From contig JBBTYN010000002.1 of the NCBI GenBank assembly GCA_038061755.1, positions 15,312 to 79,311 on the forward strand: a stretch of 64,000 bases of DNA. Reading direction: 5' to 3'. A program made the translations under genes and the position numbers. Under the pieces are notes generated by a model that saw nothing but the letters and a program-made list of their open reading frames with translations, ran no database searches and had not been told where the DNA came from. Source of the DNA: Patescibacteria group bacterium (GTDB lineage: Bacteria > Patescibacteriota > Minisyncoccia > Phycocordibacterales > UBA9973). This document shows positions 5,051-59,561 of the stretch, one piece after another (the stretch's first letter is position 1; each line of letters starts with the position of its first letter).

Positions 5051-6475
5051 TTATTCTTTCCTTAAAAACAATGGTTTTTCTGGTTTTTTGTGTCCATTTA
5101 AACAAGAAAGAATTTTTTCTGATGTGTCAGGCATTACGGGCATTAACATCCACGCAATAAACGCTAATTGTTGGAATAAATTAGAGACAATTTTAATGGC
5201 TTCTTCTGGATTAGTTTTAAAAATTTTATATGGTTCTTTTTCTTGAATTGTCCTATCTAACTCTTGAATTTTAAACCAAATTTTATCCATATATTTTTTT
5301 ATATCAAAAACATCCAATTCTTCAGCATGAGGAAACGAACCAGCCACTACTGTCCGCACCGCATAATTTTCCACCATGGTTAATATCCGTGAAGCTAAAT
5401 TCCCTAATCCATTTGCAAGTCCAGAATTATAAGCTTCTTTAAATCTTTCCATGGTAAACGGACTATCTTCAAAAGAAGAAATCTCTCGCAAAAGAAAATA
5501 ACGCAAAGCATCCGTGCCGTATTCTTTTACAATTTCATCTGGATTAATTACATTCCCAAGGGATTTAGACATTTTTATTCCGCCTTCACCGGTAATAAAA
5601 CCATGATAAATAATGGTATCGGTGGTAGGTAATCCTGCAGACATCAGCATCCCTTGCCACATGACTGATTGAAATTTAACCATATCTTTGCCGGCGGTCT
5701 GGACAGTTTTTCCGTCAACCCAAAATTTTTCAAAAATTCCTTTACTGTCAGGCCACCCTAAGGTGGAAATATAATTTATGAAAGCGCCGAACCAAACATA
5801 CATCACTTGCGTGTCGTCTCCTAGTATCGGGATACCCCAAGAAAAACGTTTCTTGTTGCGAGAAACTGAAAAATCCTCCATGCCGTCTTGCACAAAATCA
5901 ATTGCCTCTTTTCGGCGCCATTCGGGAATTATTACTTGATCTCCAGCCAGATATTCTAAAAGCTGTTTTTTATAATTACTCAATCGGAAAAAATAGTTTT
6001 CTTCTTCAACCATTTCCGGTGTTTTGTTTGGGTGCAGCGAACACTTTCCGTCCATTAGGTCTTTCTCGGTAATAAATTTCTCGCAACCGACGCAATACAG
6101 ACCTCTGTATATTTTTTTATAAATATCTCCTTTGGCATCACAAAGACGCCAAAATTCTTGGGATGCTTTTAAGTGTTGCGAACTAGTAGTTCTAATAAAA
6201 TTATCCAAGGAAAGGTTTAAAACCTCTTTCAACTCCAAAAATTTTTGCGCATAAAAATCAACATATTCCTGCACATTTTTCCCTTCTTTTTGGCTAGCTT
6301 CCCAAATCTTTTGACCATATTCATCAGTGCCAGTGCTAAAAAAAACATCCTTCCCTAAGAGGCGTTGGTATCGAGCCAGAACATCCGACTGTACGAGTTC
6401 AAGGGCAAAACCAATATGTGGGTCTGCGTTTACATAGGGGATCGTTGTCGTAATATAGAAACTTTTTTTACTCAT
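5051..6475 (-). CDS. metG: Methionyl-tRNA synthetase (short form, no C-terminal tRNA-binding domain)
   Basis: PYVNADPHIGFA (HIGH), KMSKSLGNVI, Zn-knuckle CVGCEKF...C. Confidence 0.92.
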   Translation of the reverse strand: MSKKSFYITTTIPYVNADPHIGFALELVQSDVLARYQRLLGKDVFFSTGTDEYGQKIWEASQKEGKNVQEYVDFYAQKFLELKEVLNLSLDNFIRTTSSQHLKASQEFWRLCDAKGDIYKKIYRGLYCVGCEKFITEKDLMDGKCSLHPNKTPEMVEEENYFFRLSNYKKQLLEYLAGDQVIIPEWRRKEAIDFVQDGMEDFSVSRNKKRFSWGIPILGDDTQVMYVWFGAFINYISTLGWPDSKGIFEKFWVDGKTVQTAGKDMVKFQSVMWQGMLMSAGLPTTDTIIYHGFITGEGGIKMSKSLGNVINPDEIVKEYGTDALRYFLLREISSFEDSPFTMERFKEAYNSGLANGLGNLASRILTMVENYAVRTVVAGSFPHAEELDVFDIKKYMDKIWFKIQELDRTIQEKEPYKIFKTNPEEAIKIVSNLFQQLAFIAWMLMPVMPDTSEKILSCLNGHKKPEKPLFLRKE

Positions 6476-10048: not shown

Positions 10049-10121
10049 GCCCCTATAACTCAGATGGGAGAGAACTCCCGACAAGGGAGAGACAGTGGTT
10101 CAAATCCACTTAGGGGGACCA
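10049..10121 (+). tRNA. tRNA-like gene with encoded CCA; atypical (5-nt anticodon loop, G1-G72 mismatch); isotype not assignable
   Basis: GCCCCTA acceptor; D-arm TAACTCAGATGGGAGAGA; T-arm AGTGG-TTCAAAT-CCACT; ends ACCA. Anticodon arm reads CTCCC-GACAA-GGGAG (2 nt short). Confidence 0.45.
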
Positions 10122-10198: not shown

Positions 10199-11614
10199 TT
10201 ATATCTTCTCTTTTATATAATTTTTTAAATCTGTCACTTTTACTCTCTCTTGCTTTCCTGTGTCACGGTCGCGGACAGTAACTGTGTCATCTGTCAGCGT
10301 ATCAAAATCAACTACAATACAAAATGGCGTGCCAATTTCATCCTGGCGACGATAACGCTTACCAATATTACCATTGTCATCAAATTCACAAATAATTTCT
10401 TTACGAAGCATTTCAAAAACTTCTCGGGCTTTTGACACAAGCTCTGGCTTGTTTTTTAGAAGCGGAAAAACAGCGCATTTGATTGGAGAAAGTCTTGGAT
10501 CAAGTTTTAGAAATACCCTAGTTTCACTTTCTTTTAATTCTTCTGTATAAGCGTTATCCAAAAACATTAAAAACAATCGAGCCAAGCCAACAGACGTCTC
10601 CATAATGTGTGGAATAAATCTTTCTTTACTTTCTTCATCATAATAATCTAGTGCGACGCCTGAAAATTTTGAATGTTGTGATAAATCCCAATCCCCTCGA
10701 GCATGAATGCCTTCTACTTCTTTAAAACTACCTCCAAAAAAATCAAAAGCATATTCGACATCGTAGGCCTCACTCGCATAGTGCGCTAATTTTTCATGTT
10801 TATACCATCTTATTTTTTCTTTTGGAATACCATATTTTAGATACCAATCCCATCGTGTTTTTTTCCAGTTTTCATACAATTCTTTTGTCTGTGACTTATG
10901 ATGAAAATACTGCATTTCCATTTGTTCAAATTCCCGTGTTCTAAAGATAAATTGACGAGCAGCAACTTCATTTCTAAATGCTTTACCTACTTGCGCTATA
11001 CCAAAAGGCAGCTTGGGGTGCAGAGAATCAAGAGTATTTTTATATTCTAAATAAATACCACCACAGGTTTCTGGTCTTAAATACATAACATTCTCTTCAG
11101 TTAAAACATCTACAGGTGAACCAAGGTTCGACTTAACCATGAGGGAAAAAGATCTTGCCGGGGTAAGATCTGCTGATTTACAATTTGGACAAATAAGCTT
11201 CTTCTCTGCTCTTAACTTATCAAGTTCTTTATTTAAAAAATCAAGAGGCATTTTATCAGCAACAATCCCAAAACTTTCCAAAATATGATCAGCTCGAAAT
11301 CTTGATTTACAATTTTTACAGTCTATTTGTGGATCGTTAAATCCACCGACATGACCGGAAGCCACCCATGTTTGTGAATGCATAAATATTGCGCTGTCCA
11401 AACCATAAACATCATCGCGAAGTTGAACCATCTCTTTAATCCATGCATTTTTTATATTTTCTTTTAAAAGAGTTCCATAATGACCATAGTCATACACGCC
11501 AGCAACCCCACCATATATTTCAGAAGAAGGATATACAAACCCACGCCTTTTACAAAGCGAAACTATTTTCTCCATTAAATTATCTTTATTATCTTTTTTG
11601 TTTTTTTCTTTCAT
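10199..11614 (-). CDS. glyQS: Glycyl-tRNA synthetase (alpha2 type)
   Basis: N-terminal RRGFVYPSSEIYGGVAGVYDYGHYG, class II motifs, C-terminal anticodon-binding domain. Confidence 0.9.
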   Translation of the reverse strand: MKEKNKKDNKDNLMEKIVSLCKRRGFVYPSSEIYGGVAGVYDYGHYGTLLKENIKNAWIKEMVQLRDDVYGLDSAIFMHSQTWVASGHVGGFNDPQIDCKNCKSRFRADHILESFGIVADKMPLDFLNKELDKLRAEKKLICPNCKSADLTPARSFSLMVKSNLGSPVDVLTEENVMYLRPETCGGIYLEYKNTLDSLHPKLPFGIAQVGKAFRNEVAARQFIFRTREFEQMEMQYFHHKSQTKELYENWKKTRWDWYLKYGIPKEKIRWYKHEKLAHYASEAYDVEYAFDFFGGSFKEVEGIHARGDWDLSQHSKFSGVALDYYDEESKERFIPHIMETSVGLARLFLMFLDNAYTEELKESETRVFLKLDPRLSPIKCAVFPLLKNKPELVSKAREVFEMLRKEIICEFDDNGNIGKRYRRQDEIGTPFCIVVDFDTLTDDTVTVRDRDTGKQERVKVTDLKNYIKEKI

Positions 11615-13608: not shown

Positions 13609-14187
13609 CTATAAATGCGTCTCCTTGAGAGCTTTGTTTATTTGATGCAATACTTCAGGTCTTGATTTAGAAATTTCAAACACCAAATTTTCTTCAAATG
13701 GAGATTTGATAAGATTTTGCAATATCTGATTTTCTCCAATGTATCCTAGGTTGTTAAGGATGCGCAAAACAATAATGGCCTCGATATTTCGCAATTCTTT
13801 TGTATTTGCTTTTTCTAAAACAGATAGACCATTTATTAAATCAACAAACAAAGCCTCATTGGGCTCAATGCCGGCAAGCAATCTTTTTAATAAATTAGCA
13901 ATATTGGAAAAAACTTCAAAAGTTCCAGAATTTTTAGAAAGATTTTCCAACATATTTGTTTTTGAGGCGCTAGTCACTCGCCAGAAATTCGCCCCTTGCA
14001 CAAGATCTATTTTTACATAAGCAAAATCCTGTAAAACAAAACGCAACTTGGAAGACATCTTGCGCACGCCTTGTGCTGTGGCATAAATCATTCCTAAGTC
14101 GCGAGTAAAAATAAAATAATATTTCCCGCATTCGCCAGAATTCTTACTTCCTAATATTATTCCCTCTGTGTGATAAATGTGATGCAT
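13609..14187 (-). CDS. recO: DNA repair protein RecO (short form)
   Basis: EGIILGSKNSGECGKYYFIFTRDLGMIYATAQGVRK matches RecO N-terminal OB-fold signature. Confidence 0.6.
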   Translation of the reverse strand: MHHIYHTEGIILGSKNSGECGKYYFIFTRDLGMIYATAQGVRKMSSKLRFVLQDFAYVKIDLVQGANFWRVTSASKTNMLENLSKNSGTFEVFSNIANLLKRLLAGIEPNEALFVDLINGLSVLEKANTKELRNIEAIIVLRILNNLGYIGENQILQNLIKSPFEENLVFEISKSRPEVLHQINKALKETHL

Positions 14188-14190
14188 TAT

Positions 14191-17100
14191 TTATCTTTTC
14201 TCAATTTTTACCTTAAAAACTAACTCATCTATTTTTATCTCTTGCCATGAGTTTATCGAAGGGTCTTGTCCATCATTTTCTTTAAATTCTATTTTGGAAA
14301 CTAGCACTGTCTTTTTCATGTCATTTTCAAATTTTTGAATTAATTTTTTACCTGCATCATTGGTTTCGAAAACAATTGAGATAACATGACTTGGAGTAAG
14401 ACCAATCTTTTTTCTCATATCCTGCAAAGCACGCACAAGCTCGCGATAATCTCCTTCTTGTTTTAAATCTTTTGTAATATCTGTATCGAGACTTACTTTA
14501 TTAATGCCCATTTTTATTTTTAAAATATAAACAATATTTTTGATATTTAATTCATTTTTTATTATCTCAATATATTGGTCAGACAATTTTTCAGCAATAA
14601 TTTCTAGCTTATTTAATGGTTGACGAACTTTAATACCAGCTTTCTGTCGAGCTTCCAAACCAAGGGTTACAACACTTCTAACTGTTTCCATCTTCTCTAA
14701 AACTTTCGGTTCAAAAAACGAAAAAATTTTAAATTTTTTCGTTGGCCAACTCGCCAAATGCACACTCTCTCTGTCATCTTCATTCTTTAATCGTAGCCAA
14801 ATATTTTCTGAAGTAAATGGTGCAAAAGGGGCTAAAAGTTTTGTAAGAGTTTTTAGCACAAAATATAAAGTTTCTTTTGCTTCTTTTTCTCCATTCTTAA
14901 TTCTGTCGCGAGAACGACGCAAATACCACGTAGAAAGATCTCCAATAAAATCTTTTATTGCTCTGACTGGCTCAAGCAACTTATAATCATCCATTTTTTT
15001 TGTGGATTCACTAATTAATTCGTCTAGTCGCGCCAAAATCCATTTATCTAAAATATTTTTAGAATTTGGCTGATTATTTGTCTCTAAATTTTTATCTCTG
15101 TAAAGCTCGTAAAAAATAAGTACATTATAAAGCAAACCAAAAACTTGTTGATGAAGTAAGGCAACAGTTTTTTCATCAAAATTTTTAGATTCTCCTGGCT
15201 GATTGACCGAATACATCCAAAGACGAAGAGTATCAACACCATATTTATCCATTGCTTCCCATGGATCAACAATATTGCCGAGAGATTTAGACATTTTCTT
15301 GCCTACAGCATCCATCAAGTGCCCGAGACAAATTACATTTTTGTATGCCTTATTTCTCCCCATAAGTATTCCAACGGCATGCAAGGTATAAAACCACCCG
15401 CGAGTCTGATCTATCGCTTCTGAAATAAAATCTGCAGGATAATTAATTTTTTTAACTGAAAATGGATAATGATCTTGCGCAAATGGCATACACCCAGAAT
15501 CAAACCAAACGTCCATCACCTCTTTGGTGCGTGTTAATTTTCCGTCGCAACTACAAACAAGATTAATTTCATCAATATAAGGTTTATGTAGATCCATCTG
15601 ACCACCACTATTTCTAGGCAACTGTAAAAAACCACATTGAAAAACTTCTGCATTCTGAATAACTGGATATTTAGTATTTAAATTATTTAATTCTTGCTTT
15701 ATACTTAAAGCTTCATAAGAAGACAACAAAAGACGAATTGGATATTCATGAGATATAATCAAAATATTTTTTCCAGAATATTTTTGCTCTAAATCTTGTA
15801 GAACATAAATCATCCTTTTTCGAACATCTTCATCTGTTTCTTTAGATATTACTACTTCAGACTCTCGTAATCCCTTGTTTATAATAACTTGATCTTTAGT
15901 AAATCCAAAAGTATTAGCTATAATTTCTGCTGTTTGTTTTGTTCTGGTAAAATTTGAAGATATAATAACATCTGGCTTGAATTTTAAGCTTTTTGACATT
16001 AACCTGACTTGTTCTCTACCTTCTTCTGTTAAAGCATCATTATCCTCACCAGGATTAAAACTCTCCACATTTTTTATATTAGCAAGAGAACCTCCATGTC
16101 GCATCACAAAATATTTATTTCCTGACTTTTTTGTTTTATTTTTTAGGTCTTCAATACTTCCAATAACATCAATTTTTTTACAAGACTCACAGATCCAAAC
16201 TGGAAGCGGGGTACCCCAATATCGCTCACGAGAAATTGCCCAATCTTTTATCTCCCTTAACCATTCACCAAAACGTCCGTCACGAATATGCGCCGGTTCC
16301 CATTTTATTCCTTTATTCTCTTCTATCATCTTCGCTTTTATTTTTGAATCGGAAACTTTTATATACCAAGAATCTCGAGCATAATAGATAAGCGCCGTAT
16401 GGCAACGCCAACAATGAGGATATGAGTGTTCATATTTTTCTTTTTTAAATAAAAGTCCCCTATGCGCTAAATCTTTTATCACGTCTACAGCCACATCTTC
16501 ATCTCGTACAAATCTGCCTTCAAACATCCCTGTACCTAATAAAAATTTTCCATCAAGCCCGACAATGTGATGCTTTGGCAAACCAATCTTTGTCCCAAGT
16601 TCAAAATCATCCTGTCCATACATTACTGCTGTATGCACAACTCCCGTGCCGTCTTCAGTCGTCACAAAATCCGCTCCGTAAACCTTAAAAGCTTTTTTTA
16701 ATTTATATTTCTCGCTTTCAGAAATTGTATTTTGAAGATAAGGATAAAGTGGTTCGTATTCTAAACCGATTAAATCTTTACCTTTAATTTCTTTAACTAT
16801 TTTATATTCTCCGTCTATTGCAGAAAGTCTTTCTTTAGCTAAAATTAAAAATTCTTTTTCTATTTTTATTTTTATATAAATAATATCTTTTCCTACAGCC
16901 AAAGCAACATTTCCAGGCAAAGTCCACGGAGTTGTCGTCCAAGCAAGAATATAAGTACTGGTGGAAATGTTACTTTTGCAGGGTGTCTCGCAGGCTGACG
17001 AGCCGAGAGGCAGCGCTGTGTCAGCAGACACAGACAGCGACCCTGCAGAAGTAACATTTCCGCCAGTTACTCGAAACTTCACATACACTGACAAATCTTT

Positions 17101-17718
17101 CACATCTTCATATCCTTGCGCAAGTTCGTGCGAAGATAAAACCGTGCCACAGCGTGGACACCAAGGCACTACTTTATAATCTTTATAAAGTAAATTTTGT
17201 TCATTTATTTTTTTTACAACATTCCAAACAGATTCAATGTAATCATTATGATAAGTGACATATGCATTTTCTTGATCCACCCAATATCCAATCCGATGGG
17301 TAAACTTATTCCAAATATCTAAATATTCCCAGACACTTTCTTTACATTCTTGATTAAATTTCGCTACACCATATTCTTCAATCGCTTTTTTAGAATTAAG
17401 CCCAAGCTTTTTTTCTACCTGCAATTCTACCGGTAATCCATGCGTATCCCATCCACCTTTTCGGCGAACATGAAAACCCTGCATAGTTTTATATCGAGGA
17501 ATTGCATCTTTAAATGCTCGAGCTTCCAAATGATGAATTCCCGGCTTGCCGTTCGCTGTCGGTGGACCTTCATAAAAAACAAACTCCCCTTTAGGTGAAT
17601 CTTTTTCTAGAGATTTTAAAAAAGTTTTATTTTCTTTCCAAAATTCTAAAATCCGCTCTTCGCGAAGAGCTGCATCACTTTTTTTGTTAGAATTTTCTTT
17701 CTGAACTTCCTTGGCCAT
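14191..17718 (-). CDS. ileS: Isoleucyl-tRNA synthetase carrying an inserted histidine-phosphatase-like domain
   Basis: HHLEAR (HIGH), WTTTPWTLPGN, KMSKSLGN. About 165-aa insert with RHG...SHE motifs between the zinc-knuckle region and DLHKPYID. Confidence 0.9.
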   Translation of the reverse strand: MAKEVQKENSNKKSDAALREERILEFWKENKTFLKSLEKDSPKGEFVFYEGPPTANGKPGIHHLEARAFKDAIPRYKTMQGFHVRRKGGWDTHGLPVELQVEKKLGLNSKKAIEEYGVAKFNQECKESVWEYLDIWNKFTHRIGYWVDQENAYVTYHNDYIESVWNVVKKINEQNLLYKDYKVVPWCPRCGTVLSSHELAQGYEDVKDLSVYVKFRVTGGNVTSAGSLSVSADTALPLGSSACETPCKSNISTSTYILAWTTTPWTLPGNVALAVGKDIIYIKIKIEKEFLILAKERLSAIDGEYKIVKEIKGKDLIGLEYEPLYPYLQNTISESEKYKLKKAFKVYGADFVTTEDGTGVVHTAVMYGQDDFELGTKIGLPKHHIVGLDGKFLLGTGMFEGRFVRDEDVAVDVIKDLAHRGLLFKKEKYEHSYPHCWRCHTALIYYARDSWYIKVSDSKIKAKMIEENKGIKWEPAHIRDGRFGEWLREIKDWAISRERYWGTPLPVWICESCKKIDVIGSIEDLKNKTKKSGNKYFVMRHGGSLANIKNVESFNPGEDNDALTEEGREQVRLMSKSLKFKPDVIISSNFTRTKQTAEIIANTFGFTKDQVIINKGLRESEVVISKETDEDVRKRMIYVLQDLEQKYSGKNILIISHEYPIRLLLSSYEALSIKQELNNLNTKYPVIQNAEVFQCGFLQLPRNSGGQMDLHKPYIDEINLVCSCDGKLTRTKEVMDVWFDSGCMPFAQDHYPFSVKKINYPADFISEAIDQTRGWFYTLHAVGILMGRNKAYKNVICLGHLMDAVGKKMSKSLGNIVDPWEAMDKYGVDTLRLWMYSVNQPGESKNFDEKTVALLHQQVFGLLYNVLIFYELYRDKNLETNNQPNSKNILDKWILARLDELISESTKKMDDYKLLEPVRAIKDFIGDLSTWYLRRSRDRIKNGEKEAKETLYFVLKTLTKLLAPFAPFTSENIWLRLKNEDDRESVHLASWPTKKFKIFSFFEPKVLEKMETVRSVVTLGLEARQKAGIKVRQPLNKLEIIAEKLSDQYIEIIKNELNIKNIVYILKIKMGINKVSLDTDITKDLKQEGDYRELVRALQDMRKKIGLTPSHVISIVFETNDAGKKLIQKFENDMKKTVLVSKIEFKENDGQDPSINSWQEIKIDELVFKVKIEKR

Positions 17719-18615: not shown

Positions 18616-21600
18616 TTAATACGACACATCAAGGTTGTCCTCATTAGTTTTTAATGTCACTGCCACAAACCCCTGCTTTTTAGTTGTGGTAATATTCTTC
18701 CCAATTTTTTCTTTAATAATAGTTAAGTCAATAGCTTTTTTATAATTAAATGTATATTTTTCTACATTCTTAATTGTTATTTTTGTATCTAAATCAGTCA
18801 GAACTCCTTTCTTCTCTTGCCAATCATAAACTATATTAGTATTTGGAACGATTGTAATAATACCATTTCTGATTATTTTATTGTAAGAGAATTTAAGTTT
18901 TGTATTATTTTCTCTTAATTTAATAAAAGGAATTATTGTTGTATTTCCAGAATTGTCCGTAAGAGTTACAGATGTTTTTGTAATAATTATTGTTGGATTT
19001 TTATCTATTGCATCTTGCGCAGAGAAAACTACATCTTTGGTATTTATATTAAACGTTACTTGTAATTCTGGAGGATTTATATCATATACTGTTATCCCGT
19101 CTAGTGTAGCTTGTAATGTTTTATCTATTGTTCCATCTCCATTTTGATCAATTTTTAAATCAGTGTTTAATACTTCAGAATCAGGAGTAATATTCATTGT
19201 GGCTATAGTAGAAGATGAGGAGGGAATACCTTGAAATGAAGTTGATTCTGAAATAGAATTACCTTCCTGTTTTTCCACGTCTAGAGAAAAGCTACCCTGT
19301 TGATATCCTTGCATTTTCAGAGTATAAGAAATACCGGTAGGTATTGAAATAAATTGTACATCCCCTATTTTTTCATAATTTACACCCGGAATTTCTTGTT
19401 TAATTTCTTTAGTTATTGGATCCTCGCCTGTGTATCTACCTTGGGTATCCATAATTCCTAATGTAAGTGGTGAATGAAGGGTATAATGGAGACGAGGTTT
19501 GTTAGAAATTAAAGTTGAAGTATCGTTAACTAAAACATTATTCGTATCAATAAAAGTAGAATCTTTAATTTCAGAATTTATAAAATCAAGAAGATCTGAT
19601 ACTTCTAAGATGTCTCGATGAACTCTGTCTGGAATATTTTCTTCATTATATTTATTTAAATCCACCCACCATCTTTCGACATTTGGAGATTGTGACATCC
19701 ATAAAGCGCTTGGTACCACTACAACTCCATCTCCATCAATAACTTTACGAGGTTTATAGGAAAGATATTCATTTCCAGAAAAATCAACATATGCTTTGTA
19801 ATCTAATCCCACGGTTGTTTCTTCTCCCCATCCTGCAACTTGAATCACTTTCGTATTTGGTGACGGCTGCCAATTGTCAAGTATTTGGTGCACAGCTTGT
19901 GCTTGATCATATAAAGTATTATTACCATTATTTGGATGTACAGTATCACTAAAAGATGGTTTAATTCTGCTTTCTTCTGTTCCTAAAATATAATTTTTTA
20001 AATCAACTTCATCTGAAATATTTAATCCGTATATTGATTTTTGTAAATTAAAAAATAATTTATTTTCAAAAGTAATCAAATTTTCTGGAACAAATGGAAC
20101 TTGAGGCATTGTAAAATAACCAGCTGATGGTAAAAGATTATAAACAGAAGACATATTTTCAGAAAGCTGTCTTGATCTATCTGCTCTCATGATAAAGCCA
20201 AAAGGACCAATCTCTGAGCCATGTAATAAATTAATCACCGCGTCAGGTGTACCTACTTGCGGAACTGCAATCAATATAACCTTATCAATTTTATCATAAA
20301 GAGGATTATTAGTATCTTTTAATTTCTGAATTAAAGCTTTCGCGACCAAGCCTCCATTGGAATGAGCAATAATCGTAACCTTTCCAGATTTAGAACTTTT
20401 TTGTAGATCTTCTAACTTTTTAAAAATAAAAGACTCAGAAAAGTTTTGAAACGTATTGTACGAAATATTACCGTTAAAACTAGCTCCATTTGTAATAATA
20501 TCACCAAGAGAAAGTCTCCAATCATATGGAATAAAATCATAATCTGCAATAATTTTTTCATCATTTTTCCACTTTTTTAGATCACTAATAAAAGATTGAT
20601 ACATATTGAAGCTATATACATCGTCAACGATTCCTGTTTCATCTAATTCTCCATTATTTTTTGTATCATCTTTAGTATGGATAGTACTATTGATACTTTT
20701 TCCTTGATTATCTAATGCAAGATCAGCGTGATTTGAATCATTATGAGATACCCACAATTCTTTATCACCAGAACCGTCTTGTTCATATAATCTAGAACCC
20801 ATTATCCCAGGCAGAAAAAGAACATTAGAAAAACAATCCACAGTATATACTGTAACTAAAGGCTTCATCACCACTGTTCCATTTTCACCCGCCAGAACGC
20901 AACCATAGTAACAATATGTGCCAGCTAGAGCATTTGCCGTCCCAGAAAAGTCAAAAGTTTTATAATAAATTGCTATTCTTCCACCTGCCCCTCCGATTAA
21001 TCCATAAGGCCAAGAACTATTTCCACCATTTGCTTGGAAAGCACCAGTGCCACTTATTTTATTTGCATTTACATAAATACTGCCTCCACTAACTCTATCA
21101 TAATTTCCATTTGCTGAAACAATACCATCATTTTTAAAAATATTGTCTACCACCAAACGAATCGCACCACCACCACGACGACTCTCTGTTCCACTCCCAA
21201 AGTCTACAGGCTCTGTATCTGAACCATAAACAGGTTTCGCCATGGCGCCTCCGCCTTTTCCGCCATAACTCGCCCCAGCTTCATAAAATGTATCTGGAGT
21301 TCCAAGACCATTAATATATCCTTTTCCATCAGCAGAAATTGAAGAACCATTTTCAATATTAAGATTTGAAACTTTTAAAGAAAGTATTTTCTCAGGAATT
21401 ACAGTAATATTTGAATTTCCTAAAATGGAAACTAGGTTTGCATTAATAATCTCCCCACCTGAAAGAGTAAGTGTTGAAGTTTTATCAAGAATAATATCTT
21501 TGGCTGTTATATTTGCCCCATCCTCCGATGAAACCTTTGCGCCATTAGAAATATTTATATTATTTAAATTAAACGGGCTATCATTTTTTTGAAAACGCCA

Positions 21601-22431
21601 AGAATTATTCAAATAAAGATCATTAGATGATTCATCAAAAAGACCCACTGTGCCATTTTCACTGCAAGTCATGCTCCAGCCATCATAACTGCCACAGCCT
21701 CCTTTGGCTTCTGCTTTACCAGTAAATGAAGAATTTTCATAATAGAGAGCTACTCGTCCCCCACCACCAGGACTTTTATAATAAGAACCAAACATAAGAC
21801 CCCCGCCATTAGCGCGCAATACTCCACTTCCTACAATTTTTTTAGCAGTCACATAAATACTGCCACCACTGCTTGAAACATTTCCACCAGAAGAGACAAT
21901 GCCATTATTAGTAAAAGTATCAGAAACTACTATACGCATAGCTCCTCCGCCATAACCCACTCCACCACTTCCTAAGTCAGTGGGCTTTGTAGCTGATCCA
22001 TAAGTTTTTGAATATGTAGCAGCACCATTACTAAGTCCGCCATAACTCGCGCCAATACTATCATTAGATGAAGCTCCAGGACCTTGATTAGCGCCATATC
22101 CTTTGTTGTCGGCTGAGATAGACGCGCCGAAATTGATGGTGAGATTAACGGCATTAATTTTTACTCCCTTAAAAGCGCTTGAAGAAAGAGGATCGCCTAA
22201 AAGAATCAGCGTCGCGTTATTGGTTATCGTTAAATTATTAAAAAAATATTCCCCAGCCGGCAAAGAAATGTTTGAACTTAAGACTACTTCAGCTTCGTCC
22301 GCATCGTTAATTCCATTTCCGTTTAAGTCTAGCGGAGAAACAGCAATAGCTTTCGGAACAAAAAATACCCCACAAAACGCAAAATACAAAACAAAAAACG
22401 AAAACAAGAGAATCGATTTTTGTGGACGCAT
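18616..22431 (-). CDS. Giant secreted protein (1271 aa) with Gly-rich beta-repeat N-terminal region and LCAT/PGAP1-like alpha/beta-hydrolase (lipase) domain
   Basis: Signal peptide MRPQKSILLFSFFVLYFAFCGVFFVPKAIA; FLPGIMGSRL ... YDWR ... IIAHSNGGLV (GxSxG) diagnostic of LCAT-like lipase family. Confidence 0.7.
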   Translation of the reverse strand: MRPQKSILLFSFFVLYFAFCGVFFVPKAIAVSPLDLNGNGINDADEAEVVLSSNISLPAGEYFFNNLTITNNATLILLGDPLSSSAFKGVKINAVNLTINFGASISADNKGYGANQGPGASSNDSIGASYGGLSNGAATYSKTYGSATKPTDLGSGGVGYGGGAMRIVVSDTFTNNGIVSSGGNVSSSGGSIYVTAKKIVGSGVLRANGGGLMFGSYYKSPGGGGRVALYYENSSFTGKAEAKGGCGSYDGWSMTCSENGTVGLFDESSNDLYLNNSWRFQKNDSPFNLNNINISNGAKVSSEDGANITAKDIILDKTSTLTLSGGEIINANLVSILGNSNITVIPEKILSLKVSNLNIENGSSISADGKGYINGLGTPDTFYEAGASYGGKGGGAMAKPVYGSDTEPVDFGSGTESRRGGGAIRLVVDNIFKNDGIVSANGNYDRVSGGSIYVNANKISGTGAFQANGGNSSWPYGLIGGAGGRIAIYYKTFDFSGTANALAGTYCYYGCVLAGENGTVVMKPLVTVYTVDCFSNVLFLPGIMGSRLYEQDGSGDKELWVSHNDSNHADLALDNQGKSINSTIHTKDDTKNNGELDETGIVDDVYSFNMYQSFISDLKKWKNDEKIIADYDFIPYDWRLSLGDIITNGASFNGNISYNTFQNFSESFIFKKLEDLQKSSKSGKVTIIAHSNGGLVAKALIQKLKDTNNPLYDKIDKVILIAVPQVGTPDAVINLLHGSEIGPFGFIMRADRSRQLSENMSSVYNLLPSAGYFTMPQVPFVPENLITFENKLFFNLQKSIYGLNISDEVDLKNYILGTEESRIKPSFSDTVHPNNGNNTLYDQAQAVHQILDNWQPSPNTKVIQVAGWGEETTVGLDYKAYVDFSGNEYLSYKPRKVIDGDGVVVVPSALWMSQSPNVERWWVDLNKYNEENIPDRVHRDILEVSDLLDFINSEIKDSTFIDTNNVLVNDTSTLISNKPRLHYTLHSPLTLGIMDTQGRYTGEDPITKEIKQEIPGVNYEKIGDVQFISIPTGISYTLKMQGYQQGSFSLDVEKQEGNSISESTSFQGIPSSSSTIATMNITPDSEVLNTDLKIDQNGDGTIDKTLQATLDGITVYDINPPELQVTFNINTKDVVFSAQDAIDKNPTIIITKTSVTLTDNSGNTTIIPFIKLRENNTKLKFSYNKIIRNGIITIVPNTNIVYDWQEKKGVLTDLDTKITIKNVEKYTFNYKKAIDLTIIKEKIGKNITTTKKQGFVAVTLKTNEDNLDVSY

Positions 22432-22505: not shown

Positions 22506-24131
22506 CTATCTTAATCCAAGTTTTTCAAGTCTAGACGTGATCGCGCCTTTTTTTCTGCCAAATTTTTTTGTCAGGTCGGCTATTGAAATACCAGAACCGA
22601 ATAATTTTCTTAATTCCTCGTCTTGCTCTTTGCTCCATGGGCGATATGCATTTGGATGTTTTTCTCTAATTTCGGCAAAAGGTTTTGGGCGCGCCGAGTA
22701 CGGCGCGCTATCTTTTTTTTCTTCCTCATTTTTCTGATTTTTAATTTTCCCTCCACAAGTAATTACAAAATCATCATGCATTTTTTTGAGATTGGTTACA
22801 GAAAGTTTACCAAAAACTTTTATCGCCTCAATAGATTTATTTTTAAAATCAACATCTTTTTCTAAAATTTCTGGGTGCACTTTAAACGCATGCTCATTAA
22901 TGCCAAGCAGATAAAGACCCGAGAGCCTGCGCACCCGAGAGAGCGCCACATAACCTTGTCCAAATTCAAACACTTGCGACAAATCCATTACTGCCGCATC
23001 CATGCTCATCCCCTGACTCTTATGCACTGTAATAGCCCAAGCCAATCGAAGCGGAACCTGCGTTATTTGTGCGCGAACTTTTCCATTTTCTTCCACCATC
23101 CAATCCGCGGGCGGGATAATTATTTTTCGTTCATTTCTAGTTTTAATAACTGGATACCCGCTAAATTCTTCAAAACCGGTCACCACTCCAAGCGTACCAT
23201 TCACAAATCTTTCTTTTTGATTATTTTTGGTGCACATCACCACCGCGCCGATTTTAAGTTCTAAATTCTCTGGCGACAAGCATCCTTTCTTGAGCGTCTC
23301 CACCACTTTTTCATTTCCGCTCCCAGACATTTTAAATAATTTTACTTCTTCCTTTATTTTCGCAAGCTCAATATTGTTTACCCGATCTACATCCATATTA
23401 TGTGAAAAAAGTTTAGTAATATTTACAATCTCTTCTCCCATATCATCAAGGTCAATCTGCCGAGTATTTATAAATTTTCTATGGATTGGAGAAAAATTAT
23501 TCGCGCGGATGCCAGAGAGCACGGCAAGAAAATCTTTATCATCTTGGCGATGCTGTTCAGTTAAGTAACAAACAAATAAATGCGCCCTCTCCCAAGCCCC
23601 ACTTTCATAAGCAAAAATTCCCACAGGTCCGACCTGTGGAATAAGTGAACTTTGTTTATTTTTATTCTGATTATTTTCTTTGTCCTCTCTTCTAATAATC
23701 GGTGGCAATTGAAAAAAATCACCAACCAAAACAATCTGGATCCCGCCAAATGGTTCATCATTTTGTTTTATTTCCCGACAAACCAGATCCACCATATCAA
23801 GCATATTAGAAGAAAGCATAGAAATCTCATCAATAATCAAAACCCGAGTCCGATTGACACGCTTGCAAATATATTCACTGCTCGCAATTTTATCTAAATC
23901 ATATTTATCTAATTTTGTTCGAATACCGATACCGCTCCAAGAATGAATCGTCATCCCACCGATATGCGTCGCGGCAATACCCGTCGAAGCAGTAATCGCA
24001 GGCTCCACGTCGCAAGTACGCAAATAATTCACAAAATTATTTATCGTGTGTGTTTTCCCTGCCCCCGGTTCGCCCGTCAAAAAAACATTCGCGCCAGTTT
24101 TTAAAATATTTAAAGCTTCACTTTGAGTCAC
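22506..24131 (-). CDS. Pif1/RecD-family ATP-dependent DNA helicase with C-terminal HTH-like tail
   Basis: Walker A GEPGAGKTH, GMTIHSWSGIG, LIIDEISML, Pif1-like motif order. Confidence 0.65.
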   Translation of the reverse strand: MTQSEALNILKTGANVFLTGEPGAGKTHTINNFVNYLRTCDVEPAITASTGIAATHIGGMTIHSWSGIGIRTKLDKYDLDKIASSEYICKRVNRTRVLIIDEISMLSSNMLDMVDLVCREIKQNDEPFGGIQIVLVGDFFQLPPIIRREDKENNQNKNKQSSLIPQVGPVGIFAYESGAWERAHLFVCYLTEQHRQDDKDFLAVLSGIRANNFSPIHRKFINTRQIDLDDMGEEIVNITKLFSHNMDVDRVNNIELAKIKEEVKLFKMSGSGNEKVVETLKKGCLSPENLELKIGAVVMCTKNNQKERFVNGTLGVVTGFEEFSGYPVIKTRNERKIIIPPADWMVEENGKVRAQITQVPLRLAWAITVHKSQGMSMDAAVMDLSQVFEFGQGYVALSRVRRLSGLYLLGINEHAFKVHPEILEKDVDFKNKSIEAIKVFGKLSVTNLKKMHDDFVITCGGKIKNQKNEEEKKDSAPYSARPKPFAEIREKHPNAYRPWSKEQDEELRKLFGSGISIADLTKKFGRKKGAITSRLEKLGLR

Positions 24132-24142
24132 GCCTTATTCTA

Positions 24143-25894
24143 CTACATTTTCTTTGGCGCCACGATGCCGAGAAGATACAACCCATTTTTCATTACAAAA
24201 GAAAACGCATAAGTCAGAGCAATTTTATAAGAAGAAGTTTTGTCTTCTTTATCCACTATCATCGTATTGCCATAAAAACTGTTAAAAGCGCGAGCAACTT
24301 CTATTAAATAATTCGCAATATGATGAGGTTCGTATAGAGATGCGGAACGCAACACAATTTCCGGAAATTTATATAATAATTTTTCCACTTCAAAAATTTC
24401 AGACGAAAAAGCATGCGGGTCTGGCAAAATATTTTCTTTTTGCGCTTTTTCTAAAACTGAATTTGCACGAGCATAAGAATATTGAAGGTATGGTCCTGAA
24501 TCCCCCTCAAAAGAAATTGATTTTTCAAAATCGTAAATAATATCTCCACCAATCCCTTGTTTAAGGATAGAATATTTTAATGCAGAAACACTTACTTCAT
24601 TTGCCACCTTCTCTTCTTTCTCTGGAGAAAAATTTCTGTCTGTCATTTTCTCTAAAATAGCGTCTCGAGCGTCATTTAATAGTGATTCACCAGTTATCAC
24701 GTTCCCTTTTCTAGACCCCATCTTACCAGAAGCGAGGCGCATCATCCCATGCGTAATGTGTCTCATCTTTGCCGCATGTTCCGGATGAATCAAGAAAATA
24801 ACCTTCATCACAACGCGCATATAATCCATTTGCTCATTTGCGGTAACCATAATAGACAAATCCATTTCTGGATAAGTTTTAAATTTTTCTTCTGTCAATC
24901 CAAGCTCTTTGGTTTCATAGGTTGGTAACCCCTGCGAAGTAATGAAAACTCTAGTGTGCAATTTTGGATCGTATTTTTCTGCTTTAAAAACAATAGCGCC
25001 ATCAGATTCTTCGAAAATCTTACCAATATTTCCATTAACAATATCTTGTCCAATATCCGCCATTACGCTTTCCAAAAAATAAAAATCAAACTTTGTGCCA
25101 AGTATTTTATATAAATCTTCAAAAGCCTCCATTGTTACCCTAAAACCCCAATCATATATTTCATTTATTTTTTTGTCTTTTTTGTTATCACTTTTTATAT
25201 AAAGTTTTTTATTTATTTCATCTATTTCTTTTTTTGCTTTTTCATCAATTTCATAAAGCTCTGCTCCACTAGCATAAGCCCGCCCTATATTTGATGCTTG
25301 TAGAGCATTTGATCCTGCCTTGCTTTGCAATTTTTCATTTTCCAAAAGTCCATAAATAGCTTTAGCTACATGCAGACCAAGATCTCCCTGATAATTAGCC
25401 CGAACAACTTCTGCCCCAGAAAATTCAACGAGGCGAGATATTGATTCACCAATAACATTACTCATAAGATGCCCAATATGAAAAGGCTTAAAAGGATTTG
25501 GATCTGTATATTCCACCATTATTTTTTTCCCTTCTAATAAGTTATTTTTCCCAAAACTTTCCGCACTATTTAAAATTTCTTCAACACTATTTGCAAAAAA
25601 TTTTCGAGATAAATAAAAATTAATAAAACCATTGCCAGCAATTTCTACTTTTTCAATATTTTTATCAAGATTTAATCTAATTATTTCAGTAATTATTTTT
25701 TCTGCTAATTCTTTAGGATTTCTCTCAACACCTTTTCCTATAGCTAAGGCCACGTTCGTAGAATAATCTCCATTCTTCAAATCTTCCGGGTGTTCAAGAA
25801 CAATATTATTAACTTCTATGTTGAGATTTTTAAGCGCATCTTTTATTAAATTTTTTATTTCTTGCTCCATCTTATTTTTTTCCAGTGCTTCCAA
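24143..25894 (-). CDS. argS: Arginyl-tRNA synthetase
   Basis: N-terminal Arg_tRNA_synt_N-like region, PFHIGHLMSNVIG (HIGH), class I fold, C-terminal DALR-like domain. Confidence 0.85.
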   Translation of the reverse strand: MEALEKNKMEQEIKNLIKDALKNLNIEVNNIVLEHPEDLKNGDYSTNVALAIGKGVERNPKELAEKIITEIIRLNLDKNIEKVEIAGNGFINFYLSRKFFANSVEEILNSAESFGKNNLLEGKKIMVEYTDPNPFKPFHIGHLMSNVIGESISRLVEFSGAEVVRANYQGDLGLHVAKAIYGLLENEKLQSKAGSNALQASNIGRAYASGAELYEIDEKAKKEIDEINKKLYIKSDNKKDKKINEIYDWGFRVTMEAFEDLYKILGTKFDFYFLESVMADIGQDIVNGNIGKIFEESDGAIVFKAEKYDPKLHTRVFITSQGLPTYETKELGLTEEKFKTYPEMDLSIMVTANEQMDYMRVVMKVIFLIHPEHAAKMRHITHGMMRLASGKMGSRKGNVITGESLLNDARDAILEKMTDRNFSPEKEEKVANEVSVSALKYSILKQGIGGDIIYDFEKSISFEGDSGPYLQYSYARANSVLEKAQKENILPDPHAFSSEIFEVEKLLYKFPEIVLRSASLYEPHHIANYLIEVARAFNSFYGNTMIVDKEDKTSSYKIALTYAFSFVMKNGLYLLGIVAPKKM

Positions 25895-50540: not shown

Positions 50541-52565
50541 ATGAATCAATTTTTATTGTTTGCAATCATTAGTTCATTTGTGGCTATTGTTTACGGTTTG
50601 TTTCTAGCTAAATCAATATTAAAAAAGAGTCCCGGGAATACCCGTATGCAAGAAATTGCTAAAGCGATTCAAGAAGGGGCTAGCGCTTATTTAAATAAAC
50701 AATATAAAACAATCAGTATTATTGCTGTAATACTTTTCTTTATTATTGGCTTTGTACCAAAACTCGGATGGACTATGGCTTTTGGATTTTTAGTTGGAGC
50801 TGTTTTTTCTGCTTTGGCAGGATATATAGGTATGAATGTGTCAGTCAGAGCGAATGTCAGAACAACAGAAGCTGCCAGAAGTGGAATAAATGAAGCCCTT
50901 TCTCTCGCTTTCAAAGGCGGCACAGTGACTGGACTTTTAGTAGTTGGACTTGCCTTGCTTGGAGTGACTGCTTTTTATGCAATTACAAAAGATGTTACTG
51001 CGCTTATCGGACTTGGTTTCGGCGCTTCACTTATTTCAATTTTTGCAAGATTGGGCGGAGGAATTTTTACCAAAGCAGCTGATGTCGGAGCAGACCTCGT
51101 CGGTAAACTTGAAGCAGGAATTCCAGAAGATGATCCAAGAAATCCAGGAGTTATCGCAGATAATGTAGGAGACAATGTCGGAGATTGCGCTGGTATGGCC
51201 GCTGATTTATTTGAAACTTATGCTGTTACCTCAGTTGCGACGATGCTTTTAGGCTCGCTTCTTTTTGTCGGATTTGAAAATGCAATTTTATATCCGCTCG
51301 TAATTGGTGGAATGGCAATATTTGCATCTATCATCGGTACTTGGTTTGTACGCTTAGGCAAGAGTGAAGGTAAGAATCAAAACATTATGGGCGCTCTATA
51401 TAAAGGCCTTATCGCCTCCGGTGTTATTGCTGCTGCCCTATTTTACCCTGTTACAAAATTACTCATGGCAGGAAATGGCAAATATGAAGTAATGGATTTA
51501 TTTATTTGCTCTCTTGTTGGTCTTTTTGTTACTGGAGCGCTTGTTGTCATCACAGAATATTTTACTTCTACAAAATACTATCCTGTAAAATCTATTGCCG
51601 AAGCATCAATTTCTGGTCATGGCACAAATGTTATTCAAGGTTTGGCTATCTCAATGAAATCTACTGCTCTTCCTTTAATTACAATAGTTTTAGGAATTTT
51701 AATTAGTTACAGCTATGGTGGACTTTATGGAATCGCAGTGGCTGCAATGTCTATGCTTTCAATGACAGGAATTATTGTGGCCATAGATGCCTATGGTCCT
51801 ATCACAGACAATGCGGGAGGTATCGCAGAAATGGCAGAACTTCCAGAATCAGTTCGCAATGTAACTGATCCATTAGATGCCGTAGGAAATACAACAAAAG
51901 CTGTCACAAAAGGTTATGCTATCGGTTCTGCAGGTTTAGCCGCTCTTGTTCTTTTTGCCTCTTATACAGAAGAAATTGTAAAAGCTGGAAAAAGTATCAG
52001 TTTTGATTTGAGTAATCCATATGTAATTATTGGACTCTTTTTAGGAGGACTTCTTCCTTATTATTTTGGTGCGCTTTGTATGGAAGCAGTAGGAAAAACT
52101 GCTGGAAAAGTGGTAGAAGAAATTCGCAGACAATTTAGAGAAATAAAAGGAATTATGGAAGGCACTGCAAAACCAGACTACGCAAAAGCTGTTTCAATTA
52201 TTACTGGCGCTGCTATCAAGCAAATGATCTTGCCTGCCCTCATACCAGTTCTTGCGCCAATTTTAGTGATTATTCTTTTTGGAAAAGAAAAAGGTTTTGT
52301 GGTTTTAGGAGGTCTTCTTGTTGGCTCTATCATTACAGGACTTTTCGTCGCAATTTCAATGACCTCAGGTGGAGGCGCATGGGACAATGCAAAGAAACAT
52401 ATAGAACAAGGCAACCACGGAGGAAAAGGTAGCGATGCTCACAAAGCTGCCGTTACTGGTGACACCGTCGGAGATCCTTATAAAGATACAGCCGGTCCTG
52501 CTATCAACCCTATGATAAAAATCTTAAATATAGTTGCATTGCTTTTAGTTATTTTATTAATCTAG
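50541..52565 (+). CDS. hppA: Membrane-bound H+/Na+-translocating pyrophosphatase
   Basis: [27 protein letters not shown], 15-16 TM helices. Confidence 0.92.
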
Positions 52566-59300: not shown

Positions 59301-59561
59301 TCCATCAGGTAATTCTTTCTTTATAACTTTTTCTACAAAAAAATCATTTACCGGTAAAAAATAAACCTCATCTGCTAATGTTTTAGAAGTTTGGAACGTA
59401 GCAATATTTGGATTCACTAAAATAACTTTAATCTTATCTTCTTTTAGAGCCTTAATTGCTTGACTGCCAGAATAATCAAATTCTCCTGCTTCGCCTATTT
59501 TCAGCGCGCCACTTCCAAGCACTAATACTTTTTTTATTAATTTTACTTTGTTATTTTTCAT
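56328..59561 (-). CDS. carB: Carbamoyl-phosphate synthase large subunit
   Basis: Duplicated ATP-grasp halves, oligomerisation and MGS-like domains, 1077 aa. Confidence 0.95.
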   Translation of the reverse strand: MKNNKVKLIKKVLVLGSGALKIGEAGEFDYSGSQAIKALKEDKIKVILVNPNIATFQTSKTLADEVYFLPVNDFFVEKVIKKELPDGIMLSFGGQTALNCGLELKKKGILKKYNVKVLGSPVSSIILTEDREKFAKHLKSINIPVPTSGCATKLKEAKDVAKKIGFPLMIRAAFALGGQKSGVAHNMEELEKIVIGVFAVSPQVLIEKYLHHFKEIEYEVVRDQFGNIVTVCNMENLDPLGIHTGDSIVVAPSQTLNNEEYHRLREASIKIVQSLKIVGECNVQYALNPHPKNGELDYFVIEVNARLSRSSALASKATGYPLAYVAAKLALGASLLEIENKITKVTQCFFEPALDYIVVKMPRWDLTKFVGVAPHIGSTMKSVGEVMAIGRSFEEALEKAVRMYSGDFESITDNGFNNKKELETFLNIPTPRRIFAIAESIKKGVSVEEIHKITGIDLWFLFRIQNIVNTQKIFAKSKVLNKETILNLKQTGLSDKKIGNLCGKTELEIRKLRKNFRILPSFFTIDTLAGEFPAKTNYLYLTYRGNHNDVSPLGQNAIVVLGGGPYHIGSSVEFDWSSVYAALALKKYKKQSIIINCNPETVSTDYDMSDRLYFENLSFETVADIFEFEEAGGFIVSVGGQRPNNLVKKLSLSNFPILGTKAEDIDRAEDRNTFSALLDKLGILQPKWQSFISKKEAEKFAENYGFPVLVRPSYVLSGAAMRVCYNKEQLHNFISKAAILSPEYPVTISKYIENAKELEFDGVAQKGKLMIYGISEHVENAGVHSGDATIVYPTQRVYASTEFQLKEISKKIARELSITGPFNIQFLVKDNIPFVIEVNVRASRTFPLLSKAMDANFPEIAVDSFFGKAKIHNFVYPKSVVVKSPQFSFSRLLGVDPILRVEMSSTGEAACFGKDYDDALLKSILSTNNFDFKNKNVMLSLGGELNKAKFLETGNILISLGYTIFATDTTAEFFKKHGVPCELVRKAFEHTPNILNIIEGKKVSFVVILSKSEAPLSNKKNNEGHVMTDGFRIRRATVDNQIPLFTDLQLARAFIKALAHYNVEDLEIKSYKEYLNN

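Follow-up and report, generated by a model that had tools for sequence, protein, structure and literature searches.

The isoleucyl-tRNA synthetase (IleRS) encoded in a 64,000-nucleotide stretch of a tiny-celled bacterium of the Patescibacteria group (contig JBBTYN010000002.1; the whole stretch is referred to as the window) contains a histidine phosphatase domain nested within its polypeptide chain. The ileS coding sequence (14191..17718, minus strand) is a single uninterrupted open reading frame (ORF) of 1175 amino acids (aa) that encodes a type-2 (eukaryote/archaea-like) IleRS, and the nested domain, about 173 aa long, takes up residues 533-705 (15604..16122, minus strand) as judged by alignment to an IleRS that lacks the insert. 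We regard the presence of a real histidine phosphatase domain inside this enzyme as practically beyond doubt. Taking the evidence as a whole, we also lean, with moderate confidence, towards a reading in which a complete branch-1 histidine phosphatase, nested in the CP3 zinc-knuckle loop of a housekeeping type-2 IleRS, is probably active and coupled to the synthetase; that it would clear phosphate from the acceptor end of the tRNA is a more tentative part of this reading.

A histidine phosphatase fold inside IleRS

The Pfam model His_Phos_1 (PF00300) matches residues 537-675 of the window IleRS with an E-value of 7.7e-20 and a score of 71.8 bits, above the curated gathering cut-off of 21.7 bits, in agreement with the original prediction, which had recognized the signature of the superfamily from the letters alone. 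That prediction had put the insert at 15600-16110, equivalent to residues 537-707, and had estimated its length at about 165 aa, close to the 173 aa given by the alignment; the strings that it quoted (VIGSIEDL, FVMRHGGSLAN, LTEEGREQ, ILIISHEYP and DLHKPYID) are all found in the window protein. It had also raised the idea of an autonomous domain, and structure prediction supports it. Modelled alone, from an alignment of 28 insert sequences, the insert gave an AF2 model with a pLDDT of 91.9 and a pTM of 0.89, whose best matches in the Protein Data Bank (PDB) are branch-1 histidine phosphatases. Indeed, a Foldseek search of the PDB with this model returned 286 matches at E<=1e-3, and the 50 matches listed, with a TM of about 0.65 and identities of 16-22%, all belong to the histidine phosphatase superfamily (RosC, TIGAR, CobC, PspA, Rv2419c/Rv3214, Sts-1, dPGM and PhoE), one of them being a tau55-domain paralogue (2yn2).

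The catalytic Arg/His/His/Glu constellation is present and almost invariant among the 120 best IleRS homologues, which are 64-79% identical to the window protein overall. The RHG motif (16093..16101; this and the following codons are on the minus strand) provides R540, which belongs to the phosphate pocket, H541, the predicted phospho-accepting nucleophile, and G542; R540 and H541 are kept in 120/120 homologues and G542 in 119/120. N547, the Asn of RHGxxxxN (16078..16080), is found in 119 of the 120 sequences, and R592, the second phosphate-binding Arg (15943..15945, in the motif SSNFTRTKQTAE), in all of them. E619 of the LRE motif (15862..15864), the predicted general acid/base, is Glu in 119 homologues and Asp in the remaining one, and H657, the second catalytic His (15748..15750, in the motif ILIISHE), is kept in 120/120. 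R635 is likewise invariant. Over the same homologues, mean identity to the window protein is 42% in the insert versus 76% in the rest of IleRS, and more distant IleRS-embedded copies retain the same catalytic set in 60 of 66 cases. As far as alignments can tell, the domain evolves fast while strong purifying selection preserves its catalytic machinery, and we consider it very likely that the nested phosphatase is catalytically active. If its chemistry is that of the family, H541 would attack a terminal phosphoryl group held by R540, R592, N547 and H657, E619 would protonate the leaving group, and the phospho-histidine intermediate would then be hydrolysed; the net reaction would be the removal of phosphate from a phosphomonoester or of a terminal phosphoryl group.

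Membership in the subfamilies compared was rejected, as the NCBIfam scores are far from the respective cut-offs (dPGM_arch, 57 bits against 225; CobC, 36.6 against 162.9; PspA, 34 against 350; SixA, 24.8 against 74.5; GpmB, 31.7 against 261). Because no subfamily model is reached, homology yields no substrate. The window copy is a short form whose cap region has lost about 24 aa in the interval from the LRE to the GES motif, and it is this deletion that breaks the His_Phos_1 match into two stretches. The short form is found in 19 of the 120 homologues, the window included, and a separate, independent cap deletion is present in another IleRS (P0067). Given its hypervariability and at least two deletions, the cap seems to be dispensable, at least by this comparison. 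The embedded domain is mildly acidic, with a median pI of 6.2 and a net charge of -3.

The insertion site and the host enzyme

The limits of the insert were set by aligning the window protein to a 50%-identical IleRS without insert (L081: ...CIGSIEELRERGFKGEIEDLHRPFID...). Upstream of it, residues 1-532 (16123..17718, minus strand) comprise the first half of the Rossmann fold, the CP core, the CP1 editing domain, CP2 and the first half of CP3, down to ...VIGSIEDLKNKTKKS, and the Pfam domain tRNA-synt_1 covers residues 23-532. Downstream, residues 706-1175 (14194..15603, minus strand) comprise DLHKPYID, DVWFDSG, the second half of the Rossmann fold with KMSKS, the SC-fold, the anticodon-binding domain and the type-2 C-terminal domains, with DUF5915 (Pfam) at residues 1074-1174. 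The His_Phos_1 segment between them is bounded by ...WICESCKKIDVIGSIEDLKNKTKKS and GQMDLHKPYIDEINLVCSCDG..., and at the junctions ...KKS is followed by GNKYF..., and ...LPRNSG by GQMDLH. Both connectors (KKSGNKY... and ...PLPHNxxYELDLH) are strongly conserved among the homologues. The insertion splits a zinc knuckle of the form CxxC...CxC, so that CxxC (C510 and C513; 16180..16191, minus strand) lies upstream of the phosphatase and CxC (C722 and C724; 15547..15555, minus strand) downstream of it, and all four cysteines are present in 108 of the 120 homologues. In the Thermus IleRS, the zinc-binding subdomain is CP3, a naming that follows the Candida albicans IleRS (PMC7191050). By this nomenclature, and judging from its position in the alignment, the host loop is CP3, which corrects its earlier assignment to CP2.

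The synthetase itself passes the equivalog cut-off for isoleucine-tRNA ligase (TIGR00392, 868.3 bits versus 621.4), and its Pfam matches are tRNA-synt_1, Anticodon_1, DUF5915 and His_Phos_1. The KMSKS motif (15283-15297, minus strand) is canonical and kept in 120/120 homologues. At residues 60-63 (17530..17541, minus strand), GIHH replaces the HIGH of class I enzymes; this non-canonical G/AXHH motif departs from the canonical form yet is compatible with activity, and in IleRS2 it is a functional variant tied to mupirocin hyper-resistance (PMC10485003). GIHH is found in 94 of the 120 homologues, and 16 others are more divergent at this position (VLHT, PLHS), the fourth-position His being gone. 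The CP1 editing motifs WTTTPWTLP and GTGVVHT (the Thr-rich and GTGxVH motifs) form invariant columns in the alignment; because they are intact, the insert is, by its motif content, no substitute for editing. With KMSKS, the editing motifs and the zinc knuckle conserved, and with the gene in a housekeeping neighbourhood, the host IleRS looks fully functional and housekeeping.

Several trivial or competing identities could be discarded. A protein 100% identical to the window IleRS, from a Patescibacteria metagenome-assembled genome, is listed at NCBI (MEK7471120.1) and is present on 9 contigs, which excludes an assembly chimera or artefact. An intein or other self-splicing mobile insert is ruled out by the fold, which is that of His_Phos and not HINT, and by junction residues that are wrong for such an element; inteins start with Cys/Ser and end in His-Asn followed by Cys/Ser/Thr, whereas the PHN of the relatives is followed by Glu. 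The top non-equivalog models for the window protein are MupA and MupB, both of the IleRS2 type, but an acquired mupirocin-resistance IleRS is ruled out by their scores of 775 and 770 bits versus a cut-off of 1900 for these NCBIfam exception models. The IleRS that bears a GNAT domain (NF040702) is ruled out as well, with 308 bits versus 1999 and no GNAT Pfam match. As a separate observation, the start of the editing domain carries a Ser/Thr/Ala-rich low-complexity stretch (GNVTSAGSLSVSADTALPLGSSACETPCKSNI; residues 220-251, 16966-17061, minus strand), which is missing from nearly all homologues and was modelled with very low confidence.

The fused form across Patescibacteria

The same insert is found in the IleRS of related lineages, as PF00300 is present in all 120 best homologues, which are labelled Nomurabacteria, Paceibacterota, Minisyncoccia or Patescibacteria group. 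At least 483 GTDB species-level representatives, including Zambryski-, Niyogi-, Wolfe- and Yonath-bacteria, were matched by a single restrictive peptide pattern, the use of which makes this figure a lower bound. An exhaustive, profile-free search with the insert gave 1402 cluster representatives at E<=1e-3. IleRS flanks were recognized in 78 proteins among the best 150 of these 1402 together with 12 from a word-index search; about 52 of the 78 have the same junction, and most of the others are fragments that lack one flank. The word-index search with the insert alone had returned only 12 short proteins and no IleRS, although several of them proved to be IleRS fragments. A one-off fusion, which that search taken by itself would have suggested, is ruled out by the full-length and the exhaustive representative searches. 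Within the reach of these database comparisons, a large Parcubacteria/Paceibacteria clade has the fused IleRS as its normal form. The original prediction had called it unusual, and this holds in relation to model organisms; it does not hold for the clade, and the fusion recurs in valyl-tRNA synthetase (ValRS).

Some relatives add a further domain of phosphohydrolase type. In P0043, P0050, P0079, P0081, P0129 and P0028, which are 1311-1355 aa long, an HD/HD_3 domain (YfbR-like nucleotidase family) is inserted in the C-terminal DUF5915 region, at residues ~1115-1270, and thus represents a second phosphohydrolase in the same phosphatase-bearing IleRS.

Stand-alone phosphatase genes next to ileS

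Genuine stand-alone relatives of the domain are proteins of 186-213 aa with the pattern MKLNNKYYILRHG...SxWPEKF...GELRKL, 37-44% identical to the embedded domains. The embedded segment corresponds approximately to the whole stand-alone protein, from NKY(F/Y)...RHG through the last strand, and we infer that a stand-alone phosphatase of ~190 aa would have moved into IleRS as a whole protein in Paceibacteria/Parcubacteria. In sister Patescibacteria the stand-alone gene is located between argS and an ileS without insert, and in some cases the genes overlap or are only 1-3 bp apart. In L081, the gene for a phosphatase of 213 aa ends 3 bp upstream of ileS, whose product has 938 aa and carries GIHH; in L082, phosphatase gene and ileS overlap by 4 bp, and the IleRS has a canonical HYGH. 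A stand-alone gene likewise lies upstream of an insert-less ileS in L087-L089 and L091, immediately so in L087 and L091. On the P0144 contig, argS lies upstream of the stand-alone gene, and the downstream gene is cut off.

How general is this arrangement? A metagenome scan seeded with the stand-alone family gave 80 loci, 38 of them with the domain embedded in IleRS and 42 with a stand-alone gene. ileS lies within 1.5 kb downstream of the stand-alone copy in 39 of the 42 loci (immediately downstream in 36, and after 0.7-1.4 kb of inserted genes in 3), and argS precedes it in 35 of the 42. The genes sometimes found between the phosphatase gene and ileS look like unrelated sporadic inserts, one of which resembles, by eye, a toxin-antitoxin pair. 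Within 6 kb of the fused genes, a stand-alone copy was found at 0 of 80 fused loci, and at such loci argS frequently abuts ileS with a gap of 25-60 bp. Two exceptions to this gene order were met, a stand-alone relative beside secY/adk and another in an archaeal context. The phosphatase and IleRS thus stand in a Rosetta-stone relation, fused in some lineages and adjacent in others, with a complementary distribution. On the strength of the fusion and of the conserved adjacency, it is likely that an active phosphatase is functionally coupled to IleRS.

Further insertion sites and the copies in ValRS

CP3 is not the only place where the domain occurs. Additional copies are found in the IleRS of P0172, P0185 and P0219 at positions equivalent to window residues ~747-762, after DVWFDSG, and ~873-890, where the SC-fold meets the anticodon-binding domain. 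P0219 has copies at both of these sites and an empty CP3, and P0172 has all three sites occupied. All three sites border on the KMSKS-bearing second half of the Rossmann fold. In Gracilibacteria/Peregrinibacteria, which are other classes of Patescibacteria (ValRS proteins P0134 and P0287-P0404), 71 of the 120 best ValRS matches contain from one to four copies, mostly between IPVWY and DTWFSS, which is topologically the site equivalent to CP3. These ValRS copies are ~31% identical to those of IleRS, and the full catalytic set is present in only 46 of 84. At the 2 Gracilibacteria loci checked, no stand-alone phosphatase gene lies beside an insert-less valS.

Genes around ileS

In the window, ileS is followed by recO (13609..14187, minus strand; Pfam RecO_N and RecO_C), its downstream neighbour, and recO adjoins ileS in 67 of 81 loci. 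The gene order is a housekeeping one, argS ... ileS-recO-DUF11 protein-glyS. In split lineages, a conserved small ORF of ~100 aa without Pfam match lies between ileS and recO (L081, 6027-6341; L087, 5650-5952). The argS gene (24143..25894, minus strand; Pfam tRNA-synt_1d, DALR_1 and Arg_tRNA_synt_N), which in relatives directly precedes either ileS or the stand-alone phosphatase gene, is separated from ileS in the window by ~6.4 kb of genes. They include a predicted surface protein of 1271 aa that combines Gly-rich repeats and a lipase/alpha-beta hydrolase domain of the LCAT-like kind (18616-22431, minus strand) and a Pif1-like helicase (22506-24131); in relatives the two flanking genes are adjacent. 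MetRS (5051-6475), GlyRS (10199-11614) and ArgRS (24143-25894), encoded in the same window, contain no phosphatase domain, and a six-frame HMM scan of the window found it in ileS only. A leader RNA or T-box was not found upstream of ileS, the only Rfam hit in the window at gathering thresholds being a tRNA at 10049-10118 (plus strand), just upstream of the glyS region, which scores 39 bits in Rfam and is not called by ARAGORN.

Two metabolic genes farther away deserve a mention. A membrane-bound H+-translocating pyrophosphatase is encoded at 50541-52565 (plus strand; Pfam H_PPase, 906 bits), which suggests that the organism draws on pyrophosphate (PPi) to conserve energy. A full-length large subunit of carbamoyl-phosphate synthase, of 1077 aa, is encoded at 56328-59561 (minus strand). 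Most of the biosynthesis of nucleotides and amino acids is usually said to be missing from this lineage, and the presence of carbamoyl-phosphate synthase is therefore notable.

What might the phosphatase act on?

Judging from the genomic arrangement, the phosphatase would work physically with IleRS on something that IleRS binds, since it is either fused or adjacent to the synthetase, since it occupies at least three sites in IleRS and also occurs in ValRS, and since its substrate-shaping cap, hypervariable as it is, was lost on at least two occasions. In the reading that we favour, IleRS would supply the recognition of tRNA-Ile and the phosphatase would strip phosphate or pyrophosphate from the ribose of the acceptor end. 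Candidate blocks to aminoacylation would be a 3'-phosphate that remains after nuclease cleavage or a 3'-pyrophosphate that a toxin of the toxSAS type has put on. A tRNA-specific pyrophosphorylation of the 3'-CCA by toxSAS, which prevents aminoacylation, has been described (PMC11559606; bioRxiv 10.1101/2021.04.30.441581). We favour the acceptor end because IleRS would give the recognition that a capless phosphatase is without, because 3'-end blocks exist and can be tRNA-specific, and because the three insertion sites all flank the second half of the Rossmann fold. That the acceptor end specifically is the substrate is nevertheless a tentative proposal. It is also possible that in Patescibacteria the charging of isoleucine tRNA (and, in other lineages, of valine tRNA) includes an extra, so far unrecognized step. 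A synthetase-bound phosphatase would then free either the acceptor end of the tRNA or the synthetase of a blocking phosphate or pyrophosphate, and act as a built-in repair or anti-toxin module.

A number of points weigh against this reading. The chemistry of IleRS involves no phosphomonoester, and we know of no superfamily member that acts on the ends of RNA. Small-molecule phosphatases (RosC, CobC, PspA and TIGAR) provide the nearest structures, at only 16-22% identity, and a mildly acidic domain (pI 6.2, net charge -3) is not expected of an RNA-binding surface. The three different sites and the arrays of up to four copies argue against a single precise geometry towards A76. Repair of tRNA ends does not explain the restriction to IleRS and ValRS, and in 38 of 84 ValRS-embedded copies (~45%) the Glu or the second His is substituted, so that catalysis is not always retained there. 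Neither a conserved kinase nor a toxin or RNA-repair gene was found near the ileS/phosphatase loci in the neighbourhoods examined, and PADLOC gave no defence-system match. The full-length AF2 model, whose alignment comprised only homologues of 66-79% identity, is poor (pLDDT 68.5, pTM 0.45, and pLDDT <50 in the Rossmann core); it does not show in which direction the pocket points, and we draw no geometric conclusion from it.

The identity of the nearest structures could be taken at face value, and the domain would then be a small-molecule, nucleotide-like phosphatase that acts on a diffusible product or inhibitor in the vicinity of the synthetase, such as AMP, nucleoside mono- or bisphosphates or a phosphorylated antimetabolite, with the fusion raising its local concentration. 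Indeed, the top structural matches (RosC, CobC and HFP) dephosphorylate nucleotide-like 5'-phosphates, the variable geometry and copy number suit a proximity effect more than precise docking, and the HD/HD_3 domain in the C-terminal region of some relatives is of a nucleotidase family. However, a cap adapted to one specific small molecule would normally be under constraint, whereas here it is hypervariable or deleted, and the destruction of AMP has no obvious benefit for an organism presumed to scavenge nucleotides. PPi is an unlikely target, as the membrane H+-pyrophosphatase of the window would use it, and a role as PPi scavenger is also at odds with a family that acts on phosphomonoesters. 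All in all, we consider a small-molecule substrate unlikely.

It can also be imagined that the phosphatase protects the synthetase itself, by removing an inhibitory phosphate from a Ser in or near the KMSKS loop, or from a phospho-histidine. Kinase toxins of the HipA/HipT type phosphorylate such serine sites in other class I synthetases (GltX and TrpS). The superfamily does include protein phosphatases, with Sts-1 among the structural matches and a weak match to SixA (E 1.6e-5), and a small or absent cap leaves an open pocket. The position of all three insertion sites on either side of the KMSKS-bearing half, and the tethering, multiple copies and translationally coupled partner gene, would also fit an immunity-like role. 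On the other hand, no conserved kinase gene lies nearby in the loci examined, phosphorylation of IleRS or ValRS by a toxin is not documented in the literature searched, and the SixA score of 24.8 is far under its cut-off of 74.5. A self-protecting protein phosphatase is, in our estimation, quite unlikely.

Pure moonlighting would mean that an unrelated metabolic phosphatase was first co-expressed with, and then trapped by accident in, a gene that is essential and strongly expressed in a reduced genome. Such a phosphatase, too, would keep its catalytic residues, fusions can be neutral in the compact genomes of Patescibacteria, and some stand-alone relatives do lie elsewhere (the secY/adk and archaeal contexts). 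The operon evidence argues against it: ileS is within 1.5 kb downstream of 39 of the 42 stand-alone copies, and stand-alone and fused presence are complementary. In addition, the domain is nested in loops of an essential enzyme at at least three sites in IleRS, and independently in ValRS, and the connectors are highly conserved. This makes an accidental capture very improbable. A pseudo-enzyme, that is, a structural or ligand-sensing module without catalysis that would regulate IleRS by binding a phosphorylated ligand, is hardly credible, for although the Glu or the second His is gone from some of the copies in ValRS, and the cap deletion shortens the window domain and thereby gives a Pfam match in two pieces with a lower score, pseudo-enzymes usually lose catalytic residues that in IleRS are invariant or nearly so over 120 sequences, despite an insert identity of 42%.

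Relation to known enzymes

The domain resembles branch 1 of the histidine phosphatase superfamily (PF00300; PhoE/YhfR, CobC, PspA, RosC, TIGAR, Rv2419c, SixA, Sts-1 and dPGM) in its fold and in its RHG...R...E...H residues, and phospho-histidine chemistry would be expected of it. It differs from these proteins in not being a free enzyme, as it is nested in a synthetase loop or encoded by a translationally coupled neighbour, and in its minimal or absent cap. The host, in turn, shares GIHH, KMSKS, CP1 editing and the type-2 C-terminal domains with the bacterial type-2 IleRS that carry G/AXHH, but the IleRS2 enzymes described are without phosphatase (PMC10485003).

Three kinds of precedent can be cited for the architecture. 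The curated family NF040702 ('isoleucine-tRNA ligase, N-acetyltransferase domain-containing') already has a foreign catalytic domain in IleRS, although this is GNAT and not His_Phos. The CP1 editing domain of class Ia synthetases is likewise an autonomous hydrolytic domain nested in the Rossmann fold, to which the ligand is delivered by the synthetase body; CP1, however, is universal in Ile/Val/LeuRS and hydrolyses aminoacyl esters, whereas the nested phosphatase is lineage-specific, sits in CP3 and coexists with an intact CP1. Finally, in RNase H/acid phosphatase (NF005567, of the Rv2228c type) and in TFIIIC tau55, a protein related to nucleic acids or to tRNA is fused with a histidine phosphatase of branch 1. 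Those are terminal fusions with other partners, and the likeness of the window domain is at the level of the superfamily (49 bits versus a cut-off of 326 for NF005567); to our knowledge, the reason for the phosphatase fusion has not been established in either of them.

The architecture is visible in databases, where the precomputed Pfam annotation shows both domains, under the NCBI name 'class I tRNA ligase family protein'. A full-text literature search that covered IleRS, aminoacyl-tRNA synthetases, histidine phosphatase, PGAM, CPR, Patescibacteria and Parcubacteria found no description of it, and in the accessible part of a 2026 survey of 96,219 IleRS domain architectures (bioRxiv 10.64898/2026.02.03.703510) there is no mention of a phosphatase or of Patescibacteria. 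That IleRS can carry foreign catalytic inserts is already known from NF040702; the function of the phosphatase insert is potentially new.

Significance

Few enzymes have been studied as well as the aminoacyl-tRNA synthetases, whose accessory domains, from editing domains to the appendages of eukaryotic enzymes, have repeatedly exposed new biology. Three independent lines of genomic evidence tie the catalytically intact phosphatase to IleRS, namely its nesting in hundreds of species, a tight operon adjacency in insert-less sister lineages and a parallel nesting in ValRS. The existence of natural 'split' and 'fused' versions makes a direct comparison with recombinant protein feasible. The GXHH motif of the host, being linked to mupirocin hyper-resistance, may in addition bear on how episymbionts cope with the antibiotics of their neighbours. 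The textbook charging reaction needs no phosphatase, and the association suggests that the charging of tRNA is linked to a removal of phosphate that has so far not been studied. Either tRNA-Ile and tRNA-Val, or the synthetases themselves, would undergo a phosphate-based modification or damage in this very large uncultured radiation, or IleRS would have gained a second enzymatic job.

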